Source of the DNA: Patescibacteria group bacterium
GTDB taxonomy: Bacteria; Patescibacteriota; Saccharimonadia; UBA4664; SCTI01
NCBI GenBank assembly: GCA_004297735.1
Contig: SCTI01000002.1
Coordinates: 192,160-256,159 of the forward strand
DNA: 64,000 bases
Direction of reading: 5' to 3'
Both the position numbers and the translations under genes were made by a program. The notes beneath the pieces are model-generated. The model saw only the letters and a program-made list of their open reading frames with translations. It was not told the DNA's origin and made no database searches. This document shows, piece after piece, positions 5,629 to 24,141 of this stretch. Within the stretch, counting starts at the first letter, position 1. The number at the start of each line of letters is the position of its first letter.

Positions 5629-6387
5629 TTAGCTGTTTTTAGCGCCCTCTCCTGGGGGTGTGCTTTCGGCGCCGCCAGCCTTACCTTCTGGCTCCTTGCG
5701 AGTTGGCTCGTCATCTTCGGTAACAACCTCTTCCTCGCCCTCTTCGACCGCGCCCTCAGGCATTTCGGCCTGCTCGTCAATCTCAGCATCCAGCTCCTCA
5801 AGCTCCTCGTCGCTACGAGGTGGCTCAACCTTAGCAACCAGCTCTTCGGGGGCGGTTAAAACCTCTACCCCAGCTGGGATCTTAAGGTCGGCCACGGTAA
5901 TACTCTTATCAAAATCATCTAACACCGAGATGTCATACTCAATTGATTCGGGCAAGTCACCTGGCAATGCCTCGACCTCAATCGATTCCAGTGGGCGGAC
6001 CAAACTACCCTCCTGCTGGTAGACCGCGGTTGACTCGCCGATCATATGCAGCGGAATCTCGGTCTTAATCTTTTCATCCATCTTAACTAGGTAAAAATCG
6101 GCGTGTAAGATTCGGCCGCTAGGGGCATCAATCTGTACATCATGGAACAAAGCGTTTTTTTGGCGAGCATCATCAATCTTAACTCCAATAATTTGGTTAC
6201 CACCGGCCCGAGCGTAGGCCCGTGACAGATCGCGAGTGTTAATGGTGATACTTTGAGTGTCGCTACCGTGGCCATAAATAACGGCTGGAGTTTGACCCTG
6301 TTGGCGCAACTGGTTAACAGATTTGCCGCGCTGCTCCCGGGTGGTAGCAGTTAGCACAATCTTATCGGTTGTAGCGGTCGAAGACAT
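5629..6387 (-). CDS. rplY: 50S ribosomal protein L25 / general stress protein Ctc (bL25) with acidic C-terminal tail
   Basis: 252 aa. The N-terminal 190 aa match the L25/Ctc fold pattern (TREQRGKSVNQLRQQGQTPAVIYGHG..., HADF...). The C-terminus is an E/D-rich low-complexity tail. Confidence 0.8.
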   Translation of the reverse strand: MSSTATTDKIVLTATTREQRGKSVNQLRQQGQTPAVIYGHGSDTQSITINTRDLSRAYARAGGNQIIGVKIDDARQKNALFHDVQIDAPSGRILHADFYLVKMDEKIKTEIPLHMIGESTAVYQQEGSLVRPLESIEVEALPGDLPESIEYDISVLDDFDKSITVADLKIPAGVEVLTAPEELVAKVEPPRSDEELEELDAEIDEQAEMPEGAVEEGEEEVVTEDDEPTRKEPEGKAGGAESTPPGEGAKNS

Positions 6388-6410
6388 AGAAAATTCCTAT
6401 TTAATAGTAA

Positions 6411-6740
6411 TTAAACCTGGGTGGAGCGAAAGCCGCCGCGACGCTTAGAGATTAGCCGATGAAACTCGGCGATTTCTTCAGCTCTAATCTCACCCATGGT
6501 GGCAAACTTGGCCTCCTCGGCTTGACGCAGATCGGTTTTAGACCGACCCCCGGCCTGACCAATTGGCACCGCCGTCAAAACCGGTAGTGAGCATTCGTGA
6601 CAGTTAAGCTGAACAAAACCGTAACGATTTAAATCTCCCAGGTAGTTAATGTCGTCCAAGTGGTAGCTGGTATCACAGGAGGGGCACTTGTAGAACTCTT
6701 GCAGGTACTTAATGACATCTTGTAAATGTTTACGACTCAT
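6411..6740 (-). CDS. hypothetical protein with C4 zinc-ribbon (CPSC...CHEC)
   Basis: 109 aa; RBS gaggggg; two CxxC pairs. Confidence 0.45.
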   Translation of the reverse strand: MSRKHLQDVIKYLQEFYKCPSCDTSYHLDDINYLGDLNRYGFVQLNCHECSLPVLTAVPIGQAGGRSKTDLRQAEEAKFATMGEIRAEEIAEFHRLISKRRGGFRSTQV

Positions 6741-6797
6741 GGGTAGACCCCCTCTTACACCCCCTATTATACCGCAATCAGGACGAACCTGACCATT

Positions 6798-7847
6798 TTA
6801 TTGCAACGGCTGGCGATGTCGTCCAATTCTAATCAGGCTAGCAATTAACACCACCACAACCACCAACAGCACCAGCAGAGCCACTAGTTTATGAAACCGT
6901 TCTGACATTAAGGCAATTACGCCAAATAGACCGGCCAACAGATACAGGGCGATAACCGCCAGGCGCTGCGACAACCCGGCTTGCAGCAGCAGGTGGTGCA
7001 GGTGCTCACGGTCGGCTGTAAAGGGATGGACCCCCTTACGAATTCGCCGAATAGCCGCCCACAGCGCATCAATAATGGTAAAACCAAGCACCAGCAAAAT
7101 GGTGGCTAGCTTGCCGCCGGAGTAAATGGCCAGCATGGCCAGCATCAACCCCAGAAAATAAGACCCTGAGTCCCCCATAAAAATTTTGGCGGGATAAAAG
7201 TTGAATGGCAGAAAGCCCAGCGTTGAACCGGCCAGCAAAAAGGCCAGTAGAGCGACCAGCGGCTGATCAACCTGTGGGGTCAGCGATAGAGCGGCAATCA
7301 CCAGGGCGGCGATACCGGACACTCCACTAGCCAAGCCATCGAGACCATCTAAGAAGTTGATGACGTTGACCATACCGACCATCCACAAAATACTCAACAG
7401 GTTGGCAACCGGTGTAATGTGAAACTGGAAGCCGATCAACTCAACCGCAAACCGACCGTAGGTTAGATCAATGGTTCCTCCGAGCGGGTTAGAGATGGCG
7501 GTAATACCAATGCCGCCGGCCAAGGCGATACAGGCTGCCAGCGTTTGCCAGCCCAATCTGGCCCAGGGGCTAAGACCCTTAACGTCATCGATCGCCCCCA
7601 CCACTGCTAAAACGGTGGCGGCTAATAAAAGCGCGCCAAGCTGTCGTCCAAAAGGCAAAAACAAGGTGGCCGTAATTAAAAAGGAGCCAAATATGGCCAA
7701 TCCACCCAGATACGGGATCGGCTTAACATGAATTTTACGATCACCCGGATAGGCCAGAATGCCGCGCTGCAGCGCAAACTGACGCACCAGCGGCGTAAGT
7801 GCCAGCGACAACAAAAAACTAGCAACAAAGGCTAAGAAGTAAATCAT
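6798..7847 (-). CDS. UDP-HexNAc:undecaprenyl-phosphate HexNAc-1-phosphate transferase (WecA/TagO/MraY superfamily, GT4 polyprenyl-P transferase)
   Basis: DRKIHVKPIPYLGG, AIDDVKGL, NFLDGLDGLASG and FMGDSGSYFLG motifs of the MraY/WecA family. Polytopic membrane protein of 349 aa. Confidence 0.8.
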   Translation of the reverse strand: MIYFLAFVASFLLSLALTPLVRQFALQRGILAYPGDRKIHVKPIPYLGGLAIFGSFLITATLFLPFGRQLGALLLAATVLAVVGAIDDVKGLSPWARLGWQTLAACIALAGGIGITAISNPLGGTIDLTYGRFAVELIGFQFHITPVANLLSILWMVGMVNVINFLDGLDGLASGVSGIAALVIAALSLTPQVDQPLVALLAFLLAGSTLGFLPFNFYPAKIFMGDSGSYFLGLMLAMLAIYSGGKLATILLVLGFTIIDALWAAIRRIRKGVHPFTADREHLHHLLLQAGLSQRLAVIALYLLAGLFGVIALMSERFHKLVALLVLLVVVVVLIASLIRIGRHRQPLQ

Positions 7848-10117: not shown

Positions 10118-10191
10118 GCGGGTATAGTTCATCGGTAGAACGCGACCTTCCCAAGGTTGAGAGAGGGGTTCGACTCCCCTTACCCGCTCCA
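10118..10191 (+). tRNA. tRNA-Gly (anticodon CCC)
   Basis: Acceptor gcgggta/tacccgc; anticodon loop ttCCCaa; GGTTCGACTCC T-arm; discriminator U; CCA encoded. Confidence 0.85.
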
Positions 10192-12845: not shown

Positions 12846-12922
12846 GGGCTCGTGGTGTAGAGGCCTAACATGCCTCCCTGTCACGGAGGAGATCGCCGGT
12901 TCGAATCCGGTCGGGCCCGCCA
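12846..12922 (+). tRNA. tRNA-Asp (anticodon GTC)
   Basis: Acceptor gggctcg/cgggccc (one G-U); anticodon loop ctGTCac; GGTTCGAATCC T-arm; CCA encoded. A TTGCCA-17-TACTAT promoter lies at about 12800-12830. Confidence 0.85.
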
Positions 12923-12951
12923 TTGCAATTATAAGTGTTTTGTGGTATAGT
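12918..12951 (+). promoter_or_regulatory. sigma70-type promoter P1 (cattgcaattat ... TTGCAA-17-TATAGT), starts in the tRNA-Asp 3-prime end
   Basis: -35 TTGCAA at 12923-12928, 17-bp spacer, -10 TATAGT at 12946-12951. One of three near-identical promoters. Confidence 0.5.
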
Positions 12952-12994
12952 AATTAATCCTAATTCTGTAAAGACTCTACAGGAAGAACCTACC

Positions 12995-13501
12995 ATGTCA
13001 GGAATCACCCCGGCACACACCAAGCGTTGGCTCGAAGAGCGGGCTTGGTGGAGCGCCAACTGGCGTAGCTGCCTTGCCACTCTCGACTCCGAGCGAGCCC
13101 TCACGTTCGTAAAGATGCATTACGGCCTAGATGACAATGGTCAGCCGAGTGCTGATCGCCAGGGATCTACGCTCAAATACCTTGGGGTCTCGTACAACTG
13201 TTCGCCCGAGAGAGTGAAGATGCAGATCAATGAGACAAAAAACCTCCTTCAGTCGCCGCTCGAGCCACAAAGCTACGTGGTAATGCGAATGCCTCGCCGC
13301 TTCAACCCACCGGTAAAGAACTTGCCGCTTTCTCAACGGCTACTCAACAGACTGGCAGAAAGGATTGGCACCCTCAATGAGCTGCTGGCTCTTACGGAGG
13401 AAGATATCCTCAAGATCCCCAGCGTGGGTGATCACCTGCTAAAGGAGCTGACTGAGTACCTCGAGGCTCGCGGCCTCAAGCTGGCTCAGCCAGTCTCGTG
13501 A
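12995..13501 (+). CDS. chimeric sigma-70 region-4-like HTH + RNA polymerase alpha-subunit C-terminal-domain-like (HhH) protein
   Basis: N-terminal half LDSERALTFVKMHYGLDDNGQ...TLKYLGVSYNCSPERVKMQINETKNLL aligns by eye to sigma-70 region 4.2 ([48 protein letters not shown]). C-terminal [54 protein letters not shown] aligns to alpha-CTD ([53 protein letters not shown]). Start at MSGITPAH (12995) chosen for its RBS aggaag. Confidence 0.5.
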   Translation: MSGITPAHTKRWLEERAWWSANWRSCLATLDSERALTFVKMHYGLDDNGQPSADRQGSTLKYLGVSYNCSPERVKMQINETKNLLQSPLEPQSYVVMRMPRRFNPPVKNLPLSQRLLNRLAERIGTLNELLALTEEDILKIPSVGDHLLKELTEYLEARGLKLAQPVS

Positions 13502-13619
13502 CTCCCAGCGCCTCGTGCGCAGCAAAAGCTCTACGGAGAGATTCCGTACCAGCCCGCTGCGTGCGGGGCGCTTTTGCTATTCTGGTGCGGAAAAGTTCTA
13601 ACCTCATCCGATACGACCC

Positions 13620-13652
13620 ATCATTGCAATTATTTAATATTTATGTTATAAT
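13620..13652 (+). promoter_or_regulatory. sigma70-type promoter P2 (tcattgcaattat ... TTGCAA-17-TATAAT)
   Basis: -35 at 13624-13629, 17-bp spacer, -10 TATAAT at 13647-13652. Confidence 0.5.
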
Positions 13653-13707
13653 ATAACAATCTTTTCAAGTGTACCTGGTGCGTAAGCACTCAACTAAAGG
13701 AGCAGCC

Positions 13708-14061
13708 ATGCCCAGCCCATTCATGGCAGATATGGGAACCGGTCCGGTGTACGGTGCGGATGAGGACAACGCGGCCACCAACATCAAGACCCTCATCGCC
13801 GACTGCGGGCTAGAGGGTGCCTCATGCGTACGTGATGCCTCGGGTGACTGCGACGGTCGCTTCACCTTCGTGATCTATCGGCCCGACGCTGGTCTCTGCG
13901 CGGTCGTGGACATGCCGGGACTCCAGCTCGAGAAGGTTCGGCGCATGGGAGACGACAACGTGGTCGGCTTCCCACGGCTCTACGTCAATGGCGGGAGCTG
14001 GATCTGGATGTACGCGGTCGACATCATCAAGATGTCGCTCGAACCGACTGAAGACGACTAG
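13708..14061 (+). CDS. hypothetical protein (117 aa), high-GC
   Basis: RBS aaaggag. GC content markedly above flanks. Confidence 0.45.
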   Translation: MPSPFMADMGTGPVYGADEDNAATNIKTLIADCGLEGASCVRDASGDCDGRFTFVIYRPDAGLCAVVDMPGLQLEKVRRMGDDNVVGFPRLYVNGGSWIWMYAVDIIKMSLEPTEDD

Positions 14062-14070
14062 GAGCAGATC

Positions 14071-14275
14071 GATGAACACCCTCGTGCATATCGTGTTGGG
14101 CGTCTTCCTACTGGCGACAGGCGGAGGGCTTCTCTGGCTTGCCAGGTGGGGCTACCGCAGCTACCTCAAGGAAGCGCCGCGTGGCTACTACCACATGCTG
14201 AACCAGATGACGGTTCTCATCGTCGGAGCCTGCTTCAGTTTTACGGCGGCGATCATCTTGTTCGCCACCATCTAA
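14071..14275 (+). CDS. hypothetical small two-TM membrane protein (68 aa)
   Basis: RBS taggag; two hydrophobic helices. The ORF track gives a longer out-of-context start at 13988. Confidence 0.4.
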
Positions 14276-14449
14276 CCCCCATGGGTTTTCATGAAGTTTT
14301 ATGAAGGCCCCTCTGGGGGTTTCTTCGTAGTATGTATGCAGAGAGACCGGCGGAGGCTTTTCATTTGTATTTATAAGAGTTTTATGCTATAAGTATGTAC
14401 TTGTGGCCTCTATAAGAGGAGGCTTGTTCGACCAGGAGGTCAAAACAAC

Positions 14450-14851
14450 ATGCCAAGCACCATTTCGCTGGGGCTGACGCCATCGCTCGTACGCATGGCT
14501 CAGAAGGTTCTGGAGGCCTATAAGGCCGACTACCTCGATAGGGAGGGTCATGAGGATGCCTACTTCGAAACCGCCGAACACACGGTGAAGCATCTGATCC
14601 CCAACCTGCACGCAGCCATCCGCTTCGTCAACGAGCTGTGCGAAGCCGGCTACGGCCTGATCGTGCCGGATAGGGAGGACCAAGAGGCGCTACTCCCCAC
14701 GCTCGCTGCTTGGCACCAGGAAGGTAGCTCATTCAAGCCGCTCGATCTGCTCGAGTTCATCCGTGGCGTCGCCCGGGCGCACATCTGGGATCAGCTACGC
14801 AACGAGGCCAATGCGATCCGAGTTCAGCGCGGTGAGTGCCCGGCCGGCTAG
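14450..14851 (+). CDS. hypothetical protein (133 aa)
   Basis: RBS accaggagg; followed by a conserved terminator. Confidence 0.5.
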   Translation: MPSTISLGLTPSLVRMAQKVLEAYKADYLDREGHEDAYFETAEHTVKHLIPNLHAAIRFVNELCEAGYGLIVPDREDQEALLPTLAAWHQEGSSFKPLDLLEFIRGVARAHIWDQLRNEANAIRVQRGECPAG

Positions 14852-14862
14852 CCCCAAGCAGC

Positions 14863-14899
14863 AAGGAAATCCCTGCCGTTTGGGGCTCTTTCCTTTTTT
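14863..14899 (+). terminator. intrinsic terminator, conserved family member (aaggaaatCCCTGCcGTttGGGGctctttcc + T6)
   Basis: Nested stem plus T-run. Shares about 25 nt with the hairpins at 15943 and 19285. Confidence 0.55.
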
Positions 14900-14940
14900 A
14901 TGCATTTGACCTTATCCCCTCACCCTCTCATTATCTAGAC

Positions 14941-15444
14941 ATGGAGAATAAAGAGCTACGGACCGAACTGCTAGCGATGCGTAAAGCCGATCAATCTTTG
15001 CGCCTGCAGTGGCCAGACAAGCACAATGACCCTAAGTGGGTTGAGCGGGTCAAAGAGCTTGATCACCTACACACAACGCGAATGAAGCAGATTGTCGAGC
15101 AAAATGGCTGGCCGACAGTCTCTATGGTCGACAAGGATGGCTCTGAGGCGGCTTGGTTGTTGGTTCAGCATGCCGATCATGACCTGGAGTTTCAGCTTAC
15201 TTGCCTGGATTTGATGGGAAAAAAGGCCAATGATGTTGACCCGATTAACATCGCTTACCTCACCGATCGCACCTTAGTAAGCCGAGGCAAGCCCCAAATC
15301 TATGGCACCCAGTTTTACCGACCAAGCGGCAAGGGCAAGCATATCCCGCAACCGATTCAAGATCCTGAGCTTGTTGATGAGCGCCGTGCTGAGCTTGGTC
15401 TGCATACGCTTAAGGAGTATTCGCAAGTTATCAACCGAGAATAA
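14941..15444 (+). CDS. hypothetical protein (167 aa)
   Basis: Start moved to MENKELRTEL because the ORF-track start at 14836 would read through the terminator. No strong RBS. Confidence 0.4.
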   Translation: MENKELRTELLAMRKADQSLRLQWPDKHNDPKWVERVKELDHLHTTRMKQIVEQNGWPTVSMVDKDGSEAAWLLVQHADHDLEFQLTCLDLMGKKANDVDPINIAYLTDRTLVSRGKPQIYGTQFYRPSGKGKHIPQPIQDPELVDERRAELGLHTLKEYSQVINRE

Positions 15445-15454
15445 GCCGTCTCTG

Positions 15455-15487
15455 GCTATTGCAATTATTTCATTTTTATTATATAAT
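15455..15487 (+). promoter_or_regulatory. sigma70-type promoter P3 (ctattgcaattat ... TTGCAA-17-TATAAT)
   Basis: -35 at 15459-15464, 17-bp spacer, -10 TATAAT at 15482-15487. Confidence 0.5.
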
Positions 15488-15522
15488 AAATAATCTTTCG
15501 TCCTACAATAGGGAGTAAAGCA

Positions 15523-15900
15523 ATGACTACCTTCAGTAAGGTCAAAGACGTACTAGAGCAGGCCAACACCGACTGCGAGCGGCTCCGCCTGGAGGCAGAT
15601 GCCCGCCTTCAGGGAGCGCAAGATGCTGAGGGCTATAGAGCAAAGCTGGTTGAACGCGCACAGATAGTCGCCGCTCTCGGCAAAAAGGTTGAACCGCTCC
15701 TCGGAAACTCTCCTGCGGAGCTGGACCTCTACCACCGCATACTCACGTTGGCGGGCACAGCAGAACATGCCCTCAAGGAGTATGAACAAGATCAGAGCGG
15801 GACTTTGGGGTTGGGCGTAATCCTCCACTATCGGGACGATACCACGAACGACCCAAATCGCCTGGAGCGTCTAGTAGAGCTCGCGGGCAAGTTGTCCTAA
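15523..15900 (+). CDS. hypothetical protein (125 aa)
   Basis: RBS gggag 7 nt upstream; coiled-coil-like. Confidence 0.5.
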   Translation: MTTFSKVKDVLEQANTDCERLRLEADARLQGAQDAEGYRAKLVERAQIVAALGKKVEPLLGNSPAELDLYHRILTLAGTAEHALKEYEQDQSGTLGLGVILHYRDDTTNDPNRLERLVELAGKLS

Positions 15901-15942
15901 TCACCGCCACCATACGGACCCCCATCTAGTCCTCATGCAGTA

Positions 15943-15980
15943 CGGAAAATCCCTGCTGTATGGGGGCTTTTTCGTATTTT
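15943..15980 (+). terminator. intrinsic terminator, conserved family member (cggaaaatCCCTGCtGTatGGGGGcttttcg + tatttt)
   Basis: Same conserved core as the hairpin at 14863. Confidence 0.5.
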
Positions 15981-15994
15981 GTTATACTGCATTT

Positions 15995-16687
15995 ATGTCA
16001 AACCGGTTAGAAAAATACTTTTATAAAAATAAGGGGCGCCAAATATATAAATGGGTTCATTATTTTGATATCTACGATCGGTATTTTAAGCAGTTTCGTA
16101 AACGACCAGTTACGGTTGTGGAGTTTGGGGTGCTTCATGGTGGCTCACTGCAAATGTGGAAAAAATATTTTGGGCGCAAGGCACGCATAATTGGAGTAGA
16201 TATAAACCCCGGATGCAAGCAGTTTGAAGAAAAGCAGATTGAAATTTTTACCGGCGACCAGGCAAGTCGCAGCTTTTTACGAAAGCTTCGCAAAGAAATT
16301 GGACCAATTGACGTAATCATTGATGACGGCGGTCACACAATGAAGCAGCAGATTACAACCTTTGAAGAAATGTGGCCAGCTATGAGCGATGGCGGTGTTT
16401 ACTTAATAGAGGATCTCCACACCAGCTACTGGAAGCTATATGGGGGTGGCTACCACAAGCGCGGTACTTTTATTGAATTTGCCAAAGATCTTATCGATCA
16501 ATTAAACGCTTGGCATAGCCGAGACAAAAAACGGTTTAAAGTAAATAAGTATACCAAGAGCATAAAGGCGATTCATACGTATTCAAGCGTAATGGTTTTT
16601 GAAAAAGCCAACATTACTCGACCTTACGATGAGCAAAGAGGCCATGAAAGCGATATTGAGTTTTCTTACCTCGGCTTTAGCAAATAG
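15995..16687 (+). CDS. class I SAM-dependent methyltransferase, CmcI (cephalosporin hydroxylase)/rhamnosyl-O-methyltransferase family
   Basis: KWVHYFDIYDRYF, VVEFGVLHGGSL, IIDDGGH and YLIEDLH are signatures of the PF04989-type MTase (from memory). Low GC (about 38%). Start at MSNRLEKYF chosen to avoid the terminator. Confidence 0.6.
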   Translation: MSNRLEKYFYKNKGRQIYKWVHYFDIYDRYFKQFRKRPVTVVEFGVLHGGSLQMWKKYFGRKARIIGVDINPGCKQFEEKQIEIFTGDQASRSFLRKLRKEIGPIDVIIDDGGHTMKQQITTFEEMWPAMSDGGVYLIEDLHTSYWKLYGGGYHKRGTFIEFAKDLIDQLNAWHSRDKKRFKVNKYTKSIKAIHTYSSVMVFEKANITRPYDEQRGHESDIEFSYLGFSK

Positions 16688-16737
16688 CCACCTACTGCAC
16701 CGGGTCTTTCTACCCGTTGAACATATTGACAATAAAC

Positions 16738-16763
16738 ATACAATTATTGTATATTTATTGTAT
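16738..16763 (+). promoter_or_regulatory. RHH/RelE operator: atacaat-t-attgtat 7-1-7 inverted repeat plus third half-site attgtat overlapping the start codon
   Basis: Seen directly; palindrome sits between a TTGACA -35 (16725-16730) and the ATG. Confidence 0.5.
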
Positions 16764-16989
16764 GAAGAAACTATCAAATACTCGGACTATTAATATATCC
16801 CTGCCAGTAAAACTGGTAGACGAGATGGATAAGGCCGCCCAAGGTGAGTACTCCACCCGTAGCGATTTTATTCGTGACTCTATTTTGCGAAAACTGAGCT
16901 CAACTCAGGATCGCTGGGAGTTAGCGGCAGATTTTACCGCTGTTAAAAGGGGTGGCGTAGATATTGACGAACTTCTAAAGCGACTGTAG
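16762..16989 (+). CDS. ribbon-helix-helix antitoxin (CopG/ParD family)
   Basis: TINISLPVKLVDEMDKAAQGEYSTRSDFIRDSILRKL is the classic RHH beta-strand/helix motif. 75 aa from MKKLSN. Confidence 0.7.
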   Translation: MKKLSNTRTINISLPVKLVDEMDKAAQGEYSTRSDFIRDSILRKLSSTQDRWELAADFTAVKRGGVDIDELLKRL

Positions 16990-16998
16990 CACCCGCTG

Positions 16999-17244
16999 AT
17001 GACCGATAAGCTTACGAAGCAGCTGGCCAAGCTCAGTACTAAAGAGAGAGCGATCGTGAAAACGATGTTATTACAGCTCAAAACGGGTGATATTCTTGGT
17101 TTACAGATTAGCCGACTTAAGGGTCACGAGGATATTTTTCGCCTCCGCAAAGGTAGGTTGCGTATTATTTACCGACAAGTGGATGATTCTATCCATATCC
17201 TGGCGATTGAGAGAAGGTCCGAGAAAACTTATCGCGACTTTTAA
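16999..17244 (+). CDS. type II toxin, RelE/ParE family
   Basis: 81 aa. RIIYRQVDDSIHILAIERRSEKTYRDF C-terminus is typical of the RelE/ParE fold. Located 10 nt after the antitoxin stop. Confidence 0.75.
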   Translation: MTDKLTKQLAKLSTKERAIVKTMLLQLKTGDILGLQISRLKGHEDIFRLRKGRLRIIYRQVDDSIHILAIERRSEKTYRDF

Positions 17245-17396
17245 TGAATTGTTAATGTTTAATATTAGACATTTTTTAGTAATTATGTTATGCTTTATCT
17301 CAACTACAGGTACTGCCACTTTATAACCAGGCAGTAGTGATGAATGTTAGACTTCTGGTCTCGACTGTTCGTCAGCCGAGTAGCAGAAAGGTATTC

Positions 17397-18611
17397 ATGC
17401 AACGTAAATCAAGTTTTAAGTCCCCCTCTACCCGAGGCGGGAAGGTATTTCGTAATAATAAGTTTGGCGGAGGTAATCGCCGACGTAATGGTGGTGGCCA
17501 GCACGGTAAGTACATTGACCCGTCACGATTCGTAAACACCGCCGTAGAGCGGGCCGAAGAGGCACCATTTGTGCCTGAACATAGCTTTAACGACTTTGGC
17601 TTACTGCCTCAGCTAGAAAAAGCGCTGGCGGCCAAGGGCTACTCTACCCCTACTCCAATTCAGGACGGTGCAATCAAGCCGGCAATGGAAGGTCGCGATG
17701 TGATTGGTCTCGCCAATACCGGTACCGGTAAAACGGCGGCCTTTACCCTACCGATCATTCACCGCTTGGTAAATCAGCCACAACTAGGAATCGCTTTGAT
17801 TATGGCCCCGACTCGCGAGCTAGCGGTCCAGATCGATGATGAGTTTAAAGAGTTCGCCAAGCATACCCACCTAAAATCGGCGCTGTGCCTGGGCGGTGTA
17901 AGCATTCACCGTCAGATTGCTCAGTTAAGGCGACGCCCACAGGTAATCATTGGAACTCCTGGGCGACTTAAGGATTTGTTTAACAATAATCACTTGCCAC
18001 TAAACAAGGTTGGCGTAGTGGTACTGGACGAAGCCGACCACATGTTGGATATGGGCTTCATTCAGGACATTCGCTTTTTACTCGGTCAGCTGCCGGATAA
18101 GCGCCAGTCGCTATGCTTTAGCGCTACTCTCACACCTGAGATTAAACAGCTGATTCACGGGATTATGACCGATCCGGTTACCGTTTCGGTTCGCACCGGC
18201 GACACCAGTAGCCAGGTCGAGCAAAACGTCATTCGCGGTGGCTCGAAGGAAGATAAGTTCCGTATTCTGGAAGAGATGCTGCGCCAGCCCGACTTCGAGA
18301 AGGTTCTGATTTTTGGACAGACCAAGTTCGGCGTACAACGACTGGCCGATAACCTAACTCGGATTGGCATTGCTGCCGAGGCGATTCATGGTAACAAAAC
18401 CCAGCCAAAGCGTCAGAAGTCACTGCGGGCCTTTAAGAGCGGCCAGGTTTCAGTATTAGTGGCAACCGATGTTGCCGCCCGTGGCCTGGACATTCCAAAG
18501 GTAAGCCACGTGATTAACTTTGATCAGCCGGCGACCTACGAAGACTACATTCACCGCATTGGCCGTACCGGCCGCGCCGGACGCACCGGCCAAGCTCTGA
18601 CTTTTATTTAA
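17397..18611 (+). CDS. DEAD-box ATP-dependent RNA helicase with N-terminal RGG/RNG-rich extension
   Basis: Q-motif, ANTGTGKTAAF (motif I), VLDEADHMLDMGF (DEAD), SAT and HRIGRTGRAGRTG (motif VI). N-terminus RGGKVFRNNKFGGGNRRRNGGGQHGK. Start at 17397 (RBS gaaagg) preferred over 17337. Confidence 0.85.
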   Translation: MQRKSSFKSPSTRGGKVFRNNKFGGGNRRRNGGGQHGKYIDPSRFVNTAVERAEEAPFVPEHSFNDFGLLPQLEKALAAKGYSTPTPIQDGAIKPAMEGRDVIGLANTGTGKTAAFTLPIIHRLVNQPQLGIALIMAPTRELAVQIDDEFKEFAKHTHLKSALCLGGVSIHRQIAQLRRRPQVIIGTPGRLKDLFNNNHLPLNKVGVVVLDEADHMLDMGFIQDIRFLLGQLPDKRQSLCFSATLTPEIKQLIHGIMTDPVTVSVRTGDTSSQVEQNVIRGGSKEDKFRILEEMLRQPDFEKVLIFGQTKFGVQRLADNLTRIGIAAEAIHGNKTQPKRQKSLRAFKSGQVSVLVATDVAARGLDIPKVSHVINFDQPATYEDYIHRIGRTGRAGRTGQALTFI

Positions 18612-18701
18612 TAAAGGTTGAACTAATTAAATAATTATTATATTATCGGATATTCTGTTGTCCGATAATCAGAGGTACCAAACCCCCAACCAGGAGCGAT
18701 C

Positions 18702-18929
18702 ATGGAAGCCTCAATTGAGCTGGATCCGCCCCGCTGTACATACCTAGGTGAGGTCGGTATGGCTGGAGCAGGCATCTGCGATGAAGCTGCAGTCAGCCTG
18801 GTCGAAGCAAACGGTACCAAGCATCCACGCTGCCTGGTACATGCCGGCAAAATCAAGCCCGGTACAGAAGGTACGATCACCTGGCTGGAAAACTCTCCGC
18901 ACCTGATCCCAACCCGACCGAAAGGATAG
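18702..18929 (+). CDS. hypothetical small Cys-containing protein (75 aa)
   Basis: RBS accaggag; C..C...C spacing. Confidence 0.4.
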   Translation: MEASIELDPPRCTYLGEVGMAGAGICDEAAVSLVEANGTKHPRCLVHAGKIKPGTEGTITWLENSPHLIPTRPKG

Positions 18930-18930
18930 A

Positions 18931-19272
18931 ATGCAAGACTCCTGGATGTCGCGGATGTGGCTCCCGAAATGGCGAGTAGACATCCGCAAGCTGAACGGTG
19001 GCGACATGATTCTGCTGAGGTCCAAGCGACGGTTGATCAAGCTCGAGGTCACCAACCCCGAAGCTGGATACGTGGTCGTCCTCAGTCATGACATCGTTGG
19101 GCCAACGCTGTGGGATAGGACTCCTTACCGCCTAACCGGGCGGCGGCCACAGCCTCAAAAAGGAACCTTCATCGAAACACTCGGGCCAATATGGTGGTAC
19201 GGCCTGAGTATGACTTGGTCGCTTCCTCGAGAACGCTACGCCGTTTATACCAGGAAACGGCCCAGCCATTAA
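18931..19272 (+). CDS. hypothetical protein (113 aa), Trp/Arg-rich
   Basis: RBS aaaggat. Tightly coupled to the upstream ORF and followed by a conserved terminator. Confidence 0.4.
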   Translation: MQDSWMSRMWLPKWRVDIRKLNGGDMILLRSKRRLIKLEVTNPEAGYVVVLSHDIVGPTLWDRTPYRLTGRRPQPQKGTFIETLGPIWWYGLSMTWSLPRERYAVYTRKRPSH

Positions 19273-19284
19273 CCCCCTTACCGC

Positions 19285-19320
19285 AAGGAAAGACCCTGCT
19301 GTAAGGGGGTCTTTTTGTTT
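19285..19320 (+). terminator. intrinsic terminator, conserved family member (caaggaaagaCCCTGCtGTaaGGGGGtcttttt)
   Basis: Stem aaagaccc/gggtcttt plus T-run; same core as 14863 and 15943. Confidence 0.55.
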
Positions 19321-19356
19321 ACACTTAGCTGATACATTTACGCTATAATAGATCGC

Positions 19357-24065: not shown

Positions 24066-24141
24066 GCCCCGATAGCTCAGTGGATAGAGCGCCTCCGTCC
24101 TAAGGAGGGCGTCGGGAGTTCGAATCTCTCTCGGGGCGCCA
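24066..24141 (+). tRNA. tRNA-Arg (anticodon CCT)
   Basis: Acceptor gccccga/tcggggc; anticodon loop gtCCTaa; GGGAGTTCGAATC T-arm; CCA encoded. Confidence 0.8.

Follow-up and report, generated by a model that had tools for sequence, protein, structure and literature searches.

A hypervariable interval beside tRNA-Asp in a Saccharibacteria chromosome and its likely nature as a flexible islet of moron-like cassettes

Phage morons are single dispensable genes that carry their own promoter and terminator and whose composition is unlike that of their neighbours. The genomes of Saccharibacteria and other members of the candidate phyla radiation (CPR) measure about 1 Mb and contain few mobile elements that can be recognised; nevertheless, strains vary in host range and in how they interact with phages and hosts. 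Here we describe a hypervariable interval between a tRNA-Asp gene and a DEAD-box helicase gene, located in a 64-kb stretch of DNA (contig SCTI01000002.1, positions 192,160 to 256,159; hereafter the window) from a Saccharibacteria (TM7, Saccharimonadales) metagenome-assembled genome (MAG). We consider it likely that w12933-17251, together with w18608-19336 (w marks positions in the window), is a flexible islet anchored at tRNA-Asp and composed of moron-like cassettes, which are shuffled by means of the flanks and of terminator-promoter modules.

Among described systems, T4-like phages have hyperplastic regions whose ORFans are shuffled by PeSL (promoter-early stem-loop) modules (Arbiol et al. 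2010, PMC2839356; Comeau et al. 2014, PMC4122927), and the islands and tycheposons of Prochlorococcus feature partial tRNAs and serial integration (Hackl et al., 10.1101/2020.12.28.424599). Flexible islands at tRNAs, morons, toxin-antitoxin (TA) pairs and PeSL-type shuffling are already known singly. In the literature that we searched, we did not find their combination, namely a kilobase-sized, integrase-free slot holding orphan cassettes and hotspot-specific modules in a CPR chromosome; the most relevant paper on Patescibacteria deals only with islands predicted by IslandViewer.

Content of the tRNA-Asp interval in related strains

Helicase relatives among GTDB species representatives belong, in 80 of 80 cases, to Saccharibacteria or other Patescibacteria, and the proteins of the window are named EPO04_027xx at NCBI. 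Eight further versions of the locus, found in six related lineages, served for comparison (L082, L162-L167 and L009, our handles for the loci of relatives); the nearest were obtained by scanning metagenomes and by looking up helicase homologues as exact proteins. From tRNA-Asp to the helicase, the window holds nine small open reading frames (ORFs) on the plus strand, named A to I:

12846-12922, plus strand: tRNA-Asp(GTC), the left anchor (ARAGORN; Rfam tRNA, 59.7 bits, the sole Rfam match)
12995-13501, plus strand: gene A, 168 aa, matching RNA_pol_A_CTD (Pfam, 2.3e-7), the NCBIfam rpoA C-terminus and PDB 1doq (6e-6)
13708-14061, plus strand: gene B, 117 aa, a GC-rich orphan with no family match
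14072-14275, plus strand: gene C, 67 aa, a GC-rich orphan with two hydrophobic stretches
14450-14851, plus strand: gene D, 133 aa, a GC-rich orphan, predicted to be all-helical
14941-15444, plus strand: gene E, 167 aa, DUF6624 (Pfam, 1.4e-27)
15523-15900, plus strand: gene F, 125 aa, an orphan
15995-16687, plus strand: coding sequence (CDS) of gene G, 230 aa, about 41% GC, class I S-adenosylmethionine (SAM) methyltransferase
16762-16989, plus strand: gene H, 75 aa, ribbon-helix-helix (RHH) antitoxin (RHH_1, 1.9e-5, 24.9 bits, cut-off 20.5)
16999-17244, plus strand: gene I, 81 aa, RelE/ParE-like toxin
16726-17244, plus strand: RHH-RelE unit with its own predicted promoter (TTGACA, 18 nt, TATATT)
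From 17252, plus strand: the right anchor, consisting of the helicase promoter and leader and the DEAD-box helicase CDS at 17340-18611 (Pfam DEAD, 6e-49)
18608-19336, plus strand: second variable segment with genes d75 and d113, which does not align to L082

While the flanks are conserved, the content of w12933-17251 is different in all eight other versions. The initial annotation had proposed an accessory block at tRNA-Asp, which a gene order conserved across relatives would contradict; our comparison revealed no such conservation and thus supports the accessory nature of the segment. The limits that it gave to the block, 12923 and 17244, almost coincide with the breakpoints of the variable interval at 12932/12933 and 17251/17252. 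According to blastn against L082 and L162, homology stops 10 nt past tRNA-Asp, at 12932, and it begins again at 17252 against L163-L165, at 17236 against L162 and at 17268 against L167. An independent Logan contig matches w12894-24115 at 100% (11.2 kb, including the entire cassette region), which rules out a mis-join.

L082, a 281-kb JGI contig with 81% amino acid identity in the helicase, is collinear with w7633-w31120 at 70-80% DNA identity except for discrete gaps (w10203-11526, w12933-17251, w18608-19336, w22604-24065 and w24153-25786). Within the interval it shares with the window only E (67% aa), the RHH-RelE pair (87% and 78% aa), three terminator modules of a family that we call T and a copy of the promoter module P1, the latter preceding a gene different from that of the window. 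Compared with L082 and L166, the block carrying gene G (w15979-16722, 41% GC) is a precise insertion between a T module and the RHH promoter. Its edges by blastn are w15978 (L082 9286) and w16723 (L082 9291), and the spacing from T to the RHH promoter is 744 bp in the window versus 4 nt in L082, where G is missing. L166 is 96% identical to L082 and is arranged alike.

In L162, whose helicase is 85% identical at the amino acid level, the order is tRNA-Asp, P2-B (74% aa), the module Tm with a partial tRNA, P1 with an alpha-C-terminal-domain (alpha-CTD) gene (132 aa; Pfam, 1e-20), two membrane-protein genes and the helicase; E, G and RHH-RelE are missing. In the window, the order is instead tRNA-Asp, P1-A, Tm with the partial tRNA and P2-B-C, so that the A-type and B cassettes are swapped between the two loci.

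The helicase protein is identical in L163, L164 and L165, yet what precedes its gene is different in each of the three. Beginning some 300 nt before the helicase, the DNA of L163 and L165 shows 96.8% identity, and L164 is 96.0-96.3% identical to both across the helicase region. Upstream genes encode 342 and 116 aa in L163, and 151, 124 and 125 aa followed by E (167 aa; 58% aa identity) and 43 aa in L165, while L164 has a terminator repeat alone before the helicase promoter, where the contig starts. L167 (helicase 87%) contains a d113-family gene, a 157-aa secreted orphan and a T module. The more distant L009 (helicase 62%) has tRNA-Asp, about 1.5 kb of unrelated small ORFs and then the helicase. 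None of A-I was found in it. It was the sole syntenic genome among the 80 GTDB species-representative loci, and at 62% helicase identity it is too distant for a presence/absence test. Overall, B recurs in one relative, DUF6624 in two lineages and RHH-RelE in one lineage; none of the other loci examined has A, C, D, F or G. The second variable segment takes part in this turnover: genes of the d113 family are found 5' of the helicase in L082 and L167 and 3' of it in L163-L165, and L167 has no variable segment 3' of the helicase.

The cassettes also differ in age. In the comparison of the window with L162, the proportion of synonymous differences (pS) is 0.40 for B and 0.69 for the helicase, and P2 with the 5' untranslated region (UTR) is 90.6% identical versus 70% for the helicase promoter and UTR; therefore, the B cassette appears to have a more recent ancestor than the core. 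The ratio of nonsynonymous to synonymous divergence (dN/dS) is 0.30 for B and 0.05 for E, with E, H and I ranging from 0.04 to 0.06, values that point to selection on these genes. RHH-RelE, on the other hand, has orthologues next to the helicase in L082 and L166 (RHH 87-88% and RelE 75-78% identical) and is absent from L162-L165 and L167. Against L082 its synonymous divergence (dS) is saturated (> 2) and its GC content is low in both genomes, hence the low GC is no sign of recent import. We conclude that the pair is a separate and older cassette, which the sequences indicate is inherited vertically in the L082/L166 lineage, and not the stabiliser of the whole block, as which it had been annotated.

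Base composition is indeed mosaic, as initially described, although less sharply: 13.7-15.4 kb has 56.1% GC and not about 60%, and 16.0-17.2 kb has 42.0% and not about 38%. The whole window has 50.9% GC, and its other parts span 41-59%. Genes B (60.6% GC) and D (61.7% GC) have GC contents at third codon positions (GC3) of 0.756 and 0.761, the top two of 76 window ORFs (z = +2.5), and G and H have about 40-41% GC. Cassette ORFs of all relatives are GC-rich (56-66%). Elsewhere in the window, the minus-strand gene runs w31331-38242 and w42059-47257, one gene of which is a 1172-aa ORF, have a low GC3 of 0.41-0.48 (z -1 to -1.8), like G and H, and may form another compositionally distinct block.

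Promoter, terminator and tRNA-derived modules

The initial annotation had ascribed to the block promoter and terminator families of its own, and this holds. The modules of the window, whose promoter or terminator function is predicted, are the following:

12922-12962, plus strand: promoter module P1, with -35 ATTGCAAT, 17-nt spacer and -10 TGgTATAGT, abutting the tRNA 3' end (nhmmer P profile, 3.9e-15)
13505-13622, plus strand: module Tm, a long hairpin (13507-13572) and then a degenerate copy of the tRNA-Asp 3' end (about 13590-13622)
13623-13664, plus strand: promoter module P2, ATTGCAATTAT and then TGTTATAAT (nhmmer P, 8.4e-11)
14300-14394, plus strand: short hairpin (about 14300-14320) and then a degenerate P1-type promoter (14364-14394)
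14842-14934, plus strand: T module (14842-14904) and then the E promoter (TTGACC, 17 nt, CATTAT; 14906-14934)
15458-15499, plus strand: promoter module P3, of P2 type and 87% identical to P2 (nhmmer, 3e-8)
15920-15984, plus strand: T module after F (nhmmer, 9e-20; -26 kcal/mol, z = -6.1)
19265-19320, plus strand: third T-family terminator, after d113 (nhmmer T, 2.1e-7)

The motif ATTGCAATTAT has exactly three copies in 64 kb (12922, 13623 and 15458), all within the cassette region, while by simple arithmetic a given 11-mer is expected about 0.03 times in the window. Each copy forms the -35 region of a promoter of the type TTGCAA, 17 nt, TATAAT, and ATTGCAAT, the -35 of this family, is a perfect palindrome. 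P1 is 84-85% identical to copies in L082 (5069-5113) and L162 (1567-1612), both of which lie ahead of different genes, and the degenerate promoter at 14364-14394 (repeat family D1/D2) is 63-65% identical to P1. In L162, the P2 copy abuts tRNA-Asp directly. A dif-like reading of the P modules was also considered, since TTATGTTATAAT resembles a XerD arm; we dropped it because a matching XerC arm was not found by eye, and TTATGTTATAAT is better explained as an extended -10 box.

The T family comprises hairpin terminators of about 50 nt after D, F and d113, with folding energies of -24.5 to -26 kcal/mol and z of -4.2 to -6.1. The copy after D (nhmmer T, 4.9e-15; -24.5 kcal/mol, z = -4.2) is followed by the E promoter, and the ATG of E lies 7 nt past its -10; the copy after F is 96% identical to that found immediately before the RHH promoter in L082 and L166. 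The Tm hairpin, 3' of gene A, folds at -47.9 kcal/mol (z = -4.5), and w13508-13631 is 89.5% identical to L162 1468-1591. The hairpin at 14300-14320 is weak (-14.5 kcal/mol, z = -2.2). A further terminator-like repeat, T2, is present in the relatives (L082 5617-5675, L162 2120-2178, L165 464-512 and L164 1-49), where its copies are 90-96% identical and follow unrelated genes; it is absent from the window.

Profile matches (9e-20 to 2e-7 for T, 4e-15 to 3e-8 for P) are confined to the variable intervals of the window, L082, L162, L165, L166 and L167, and nhmmer found no P or T copy in the rest of the 64-kb window. Terminators and promoters often stand back to back (Tm and P2, T and the E promoter, T and the G promoter and, in L082, T and the RHH promoter), and breakpoints coincide with them: the insertion of G falls precisely at the junction of T with the RHH promoter, the genes that follow P1 are not homologous among the window, L082 and L162, and the contigs L166 and L164 break at terminator repeats.

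The initial annotation had also found no repeat of the tRNA 3' end, and here we came to a different result. The 18 nt directly before P2, ATCCGATACGACCCATCA (13605-13622), match the tRNA 3' end ATCCGGTCGGGCCCGCCA at 12 of 18 positions and the orthologous L162 copy does so at 13 of 18, while other promoters reach 3-7 of 18. Moreover, w13606-14059 aligns to L162 1008-1461, where the counterpart is the genuine tRNA-Asp 3' end. A strict-mismatch search for attachment (att) sites with regular expressions was empty, and the decayed copy was seen only by anchored local alignment and then by comparison with L162; we scored it by an anchored ungapped count, as a gapped score did not discriminate it from random 30-mers. 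The copy brackets gene A alone, which is therefore flanked by the intact tRNA end and by its decayed copy, with an identical ATTGCAATTAT after each. Likewise, in L082 the cassette of a 294-aa ORF is flanked by CGCCATTGCAATTAT and CGCCATTTGTAATTAT. No copy of the tRNA 3' end was found at the distal boundary, 17252. These sequences are best read as a duplication of the tRNA-Asp 3' end and its adjoining promoter, with at least one att-type event.

Explanations for the turnover of cassettes

Taking these results together, the islet would consist of a row of independently transcribed units, each with one or two genes and most of them with a sigma-70-type promoter at the 5' side and a strong hairpin terminator at the 3' side, both drawn from a few families found only at the hotspot (P1/P2, T, Tm and, in relatives only, T2). 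Cassettes would be gained, lost, replaced and reordered by recombination, with the homology for exchange supplied by the outer flanks (tRNA-Asp and helicase) and by the dispersed composite terminator-promoter modules, and imported DNA could enter via transformation. At least one att-type event would have left cassette A between the intact tRNA end and its decayed copy. The cassette genes would be individually dispensable, strain-specific accessories rather than parts of one machine.

Several points weigh against this interpretation. The route of recombination is one that we infer from end states, and the roles suggested for A-F likewise derive from their sequences; the AlphaFold2 (AF2) models of B and D were unusable, and the activity of the P, T and Tm modules is predicted. 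The comparison comprises only eight other versions, mostly on short metagenome contigs that end at repeats or tRNAs, and some of the arrays are incomplete. There is a single partial tRNA copy, which delimits 0.7 kb rather than the whole segment, and by the anchored ungapped count the other P modules have no significant tRNA-like remnant. Finally, the low pS of B could partly reflect its codon bias (GC3 0.76).

The main alternative, which we regard as unlikely, is serial site-specific integration at the tRNA-Asp 3' end by a tyrosine recombinase acting in trans, for instance that of a conserved Xer-like gene at w30369-31280 or an integrase brought by a transient element. Every circle arriving with its att/P module would regenerate the tRNA end and push older cassettes inward, leaving integrase-less remnants comparable to tycheposon remnants or CIMEs. 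The degenerate tRNA end immediately before P2, the identical ATTGCAATTAT after both tRNA ends and the L082 cassette between CGCCATTGCAATTAT and CGCCATTTGTAATTAT are consistent with such events, as is the exchange of places between the A-type and B cassettes on the two sides of an unchanged Tm and partial tRNA, an outcome that excision and re-integration would give. There is also a precedent in the Prochlorococcus islands (10.1101/2020.12.28.424599), and a tyrosine recombinase is encoded 13 kb away (Pfam, 6.5e-42). However, none of the nine locus versions has an integrase or excisionase, only one partial tRNA is statistically credible (other P modules score 4-7 of 18), and many breakpoints lie at terminators or stop codons and not at att-like sequence. 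The nearby recombinase, moreover, is a conserved core gene of XerC/D architecture, unlinked to the islet. 

This gene, on the plus strand at w30369-31280, encodes 303 aa with Phage_int_SAM_1 and Phage_integrase domains; it is the recombinase nearest to the hotspot and the only one in reach of it, is kept in L082 and L166, and is probably a XerC/D-like chromosome-dimer resolvase, judging from its sequence. Within A-I, searches against Pfam, PHROG, PADLOC and NCBIfam found no integrase or excisionase, as the initial annotation had stated, and no recombinase domain was found in nine relatives' cassette proteins or in the gene tables of L162-L167. A still more speculative idea, to which we give little credence, is that the P modules (tRNA-3'-end-derived sequence, ATTGCAAT palindrome and -10) and the T hairpins together make up an integron-like capture system for promoter-carrying cassettes, with a recombinase in trans that is perhaps the Xer-like enzyme 13 kb away. 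In this context, the proteins with sigma-4 and alpha-CTD regions encoded at P1 promoters in two lineages might be site-specific accessory or regulatory DNA-binding factors.

The tRNA adjacency, the mosaic GC and the TA pair would also suit the proposal, made in the initial annotation, that the 4.3-kb block is the remnant of a single mobile or defence element whose proteins cooperate and which RHH-RelE stabilises, and G has a weak PADLOC match to the methyltransferase part of mad2 (3.5e-8). We nevertheless find this highly improbable, since the parts assort independently: B occurs without D-I in L162, E without A-D in L082 and L165, and RHH-RelE without A-G in L166 and without A-D, F and G in L082. 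In addition, each component has a separate promoter and terminator, G is an insertion of its own, and no PADLOC system and no phage or plasmid similarity were found for the block; the match of G to mad2, which was partial and had no partner proteins, was the sole PADLOC match. A phage origin was rejected as well: the locus has no phage DNA match, B and F have no relatives and the T module no match among viral contigs, and G is only 27-31% identical to phage methyltransferases.

Orphan genes, and the fact that the source MAG contig and the Logan contigs break at tRNAs and repeats, might finally suggest ordinary core DNA with fast-evolving genes, or else an artefact of assembly or binning. Of all the explanations, we judge this to be the least probable. 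Strains whose flanks are 97% identical have genes of different number, size and order, which divergence cannot produce, and B is closer at synonymous sites than a core gene. The cassettes lie within 11.2 kb that an independent assembly reproduces at 100% identity, and the flanks are collinear with the 281-kb relative contig L082. Based on all of the above, we favour the flexible islet of moron-like cassettes.

Cassette genes and comparison with described systems

Gene A is predicted to be a DNA-binding protein that combines a sigma-region-4-like helix-turn-helix with an alpha-CTD-like helix-hairpin-helix. This agrees with its initial annotation: the alpha-CTD is recognised by Pfam, NCBIfam and PDB, and the N-terminal stretch LDSERALTFVKMHYGLDD...GVSYNCSPERVKMQINETKNLL reads by eye as a sigma region 4 helix-turn-helix, which is also present in the two-domain relatives P0179 and P0258. 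Among 1.84e9 representatives, phmmer relatives cover the CTD only, apart from a few two-domain proteins (P0179, P0258), and no relatives of the N-terminal 100 aa were found. Gene B has a single homologue among 5.8e9 proteins (P0002, 74%), and D has none except itself. Their AF2 models (pLDDT 37 and 57, respectively) are too poor for fold searches. Gene C, judging by eye from its translation, is predicted to be a small membrane protein. For F, tblastn was negative in 160 related loci and in L162-L167, and exact-protein look-ups of F and D returned only one other contig. PHROG, PADLOC and NCBIfam gave no matches for B-F (nor did Pfam for D and F), and the one match of A in these three libraries is that to the alpha-CTD in NCBIfam. 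Plausible roles for the cassette proteins lie in surface, host or phage interactions.

Gene G is best described, from its sequence, as a sugar O-methyltransferase of the MycE/TylE/CmcI type, and its earlier assignment to CmcI-type methyltransferases stands. In Pfam it matches Methyltransf_24 (1.6e-8, 35.8 bits, threshold 26.3) and RMNT_CmcI (5.9e-5, 23.3 bits, threshold 23.2), its nearest solved structures are MycE (PDB 3ssm, 6.3e-28), TylE (9e-24) and CmcI (2e-5), and it matches a PHROG methyltransferase at 2e-23. The 250-aa ORF opens with 60 nt that belong to the terminator of F, which makes 15995 the probable true start of G. Genes H and I have the layout of a type II TA system, being small, adjacent and co-oriented, with the antitoxin first, an RHH domain and a 9-nt gap. 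The antitoxin half of the RHH/RelE annotation is borne out by RHH_1 above its cut-off; I matches a PHROG RelE-like toxin (3.2e-9 across 75 of 81 residues) and falls short in Pfam, where ParE_toxin scores 18.4 bits under a cut-off of 23. A ribosome-binding site or a leaderless start, read from the sequence, precedes every cassette gene, in line with their being expressed. The starts of E, G and H (14941, 15995 and 16762) lie about 7 nt after the predicted -10 boxes CATTAT, TGTTATACT and TATATT and have no Shine-Dalgarno sequence, which suggests that their mRNAs are leaderless.

Other tRNAs of the window also border differences from L082. Right after tRNA-Gly(CCC), which ends at 10191, a 1.3-kb block missing from L082 (w10203-11526) carries a TA pair of VapC (PIN, 1.2e-8) and VapB (MazE/AbrB-type, 1.3e-5) and a 188-aa orphan. 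It is a second insertion beside a tRNA that brings its own TA pair, and it contains neither P nor T modules. The surroundings of tRNA-Arg(CCT) (24066-24141) differ on either side as well: w22604-24065 is 1.46 kb, including a GTP cyclohydrolase I/QueF-like gene (Pfam, 1e-61), versus 60 bp in L082, and downstream (w24153-25786) there are 1.6 kb versus 0.43 kb. As the flanks of tRNA-Asp, tRNA-Gly and tRNA-Arg all differ from L082, all three tRNA loci of the window are variable spots. 

Two of the relatives' contigs have particularities of their own. In the Logan contig L162 (1-1025), the 0.9 kb before tRNA-Asp has 73% GC, and the tRNA has a 5' half unlike the Saccharibacteria version, with an A3-C70 mismatch, and an identical 3' part of 34 nt. 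This 5' part is probably a k-mer chimera, in which a high-GC (actinobacterium-like) organism was joined to the Saccharibacterium via a tRNA-Asp 3' half common to both; if the shared half were real, it would be a potential att sequence common to host and epibiont. L163 contains, between d285 and SurA-like genes (6097-7140), a 347-aa RVT_1 reverse transcriptase gene present in this strain only and missing from L164, L165 and the window, which could be a group II intron, a retron or an element of the diversity-generating retroelement (DGR) type.

Compared with described systems, the islet resembles integron arrays and CALINs in its tandem, small and mostly orphan genes followed by imperfect inverted repeats and in its rapid turnover. 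Unlike them, it has no IntI, its hairpins end in T-runs and lack the GTTRRRY/RYYYAAC cores, and it has its own promoters; an integron proper was rejected on these grounds, as attC cores are lacking, the cassettes carry their own promoters and no integrase was found. It differs from phage morons in having no prophage context and no phage DNA or protein similarity. The H-I pair matches type II RelE/ParE-RHH systems in architecture, sizes and domains; it departs from them in that I is below the Pfam ParE threshold, its toxin activity is predicted and the pair is one cassette among several.

With the Prochlorococcus islands, the locus shares a fixed tRNA slot, strain-variable content, an internal partial tRNA 3' end and many orphans, in a small host genome with few classical mobile elements. 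By the usual marks of tRNA islands, presence/absence polymorphism at the tRNA was found, and an integrase inside the element was not. In contrast to the Prochlorococcus islands, the islet is much smaller (2-6 kb), has a single partial tRNA and shared promoter/terminator modules, and no version of the locus yielded an integrase, an integrase fragment or a replication module.

As for PeSLs, the repeated modules of a hairpin terminator and a sigma-70 promoter are confined to hypervariable regions and flank small ORFans, the indel and replacement breakpoints of close relatives lie at modules, and one module stands before unrelated genes. On the other hand, the islet lies in a Saccharibacteria chromosome at a tRNA, while PeSLs are found in a phage genome with phage early promoters. 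Its promoter and terminator are sometimes apart, and in some places only one of the two occurs; in sequence its modules are unrelated to PeSLs; and PeSLs form mini-circles, whereas the islet is known from its sequence. Given the Saccharibacteria chromosome and the absence of phage similarity, the locus would work like PeSLs without being a member of them.

Altogether, the locus offers a concrete, sequence-defined case of strain-level renewal of orphan genes in a small genome, in which a fixed tRNA slot appears to be filled by ready-to-express cassettes with portable promoter and terminator modules. Should this architecture recur at other tRNAs and in other CPR lineages, it would explain part of their orphan-gene pool, and the new genetic tools of the phylum could draw on it for natural neutral insertion sites and for promoters and terminators that work. 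It would likewise extend the PeSL idea, that is, regulatory cassettes acting as recombination anchors, from phages to cellular genomes.

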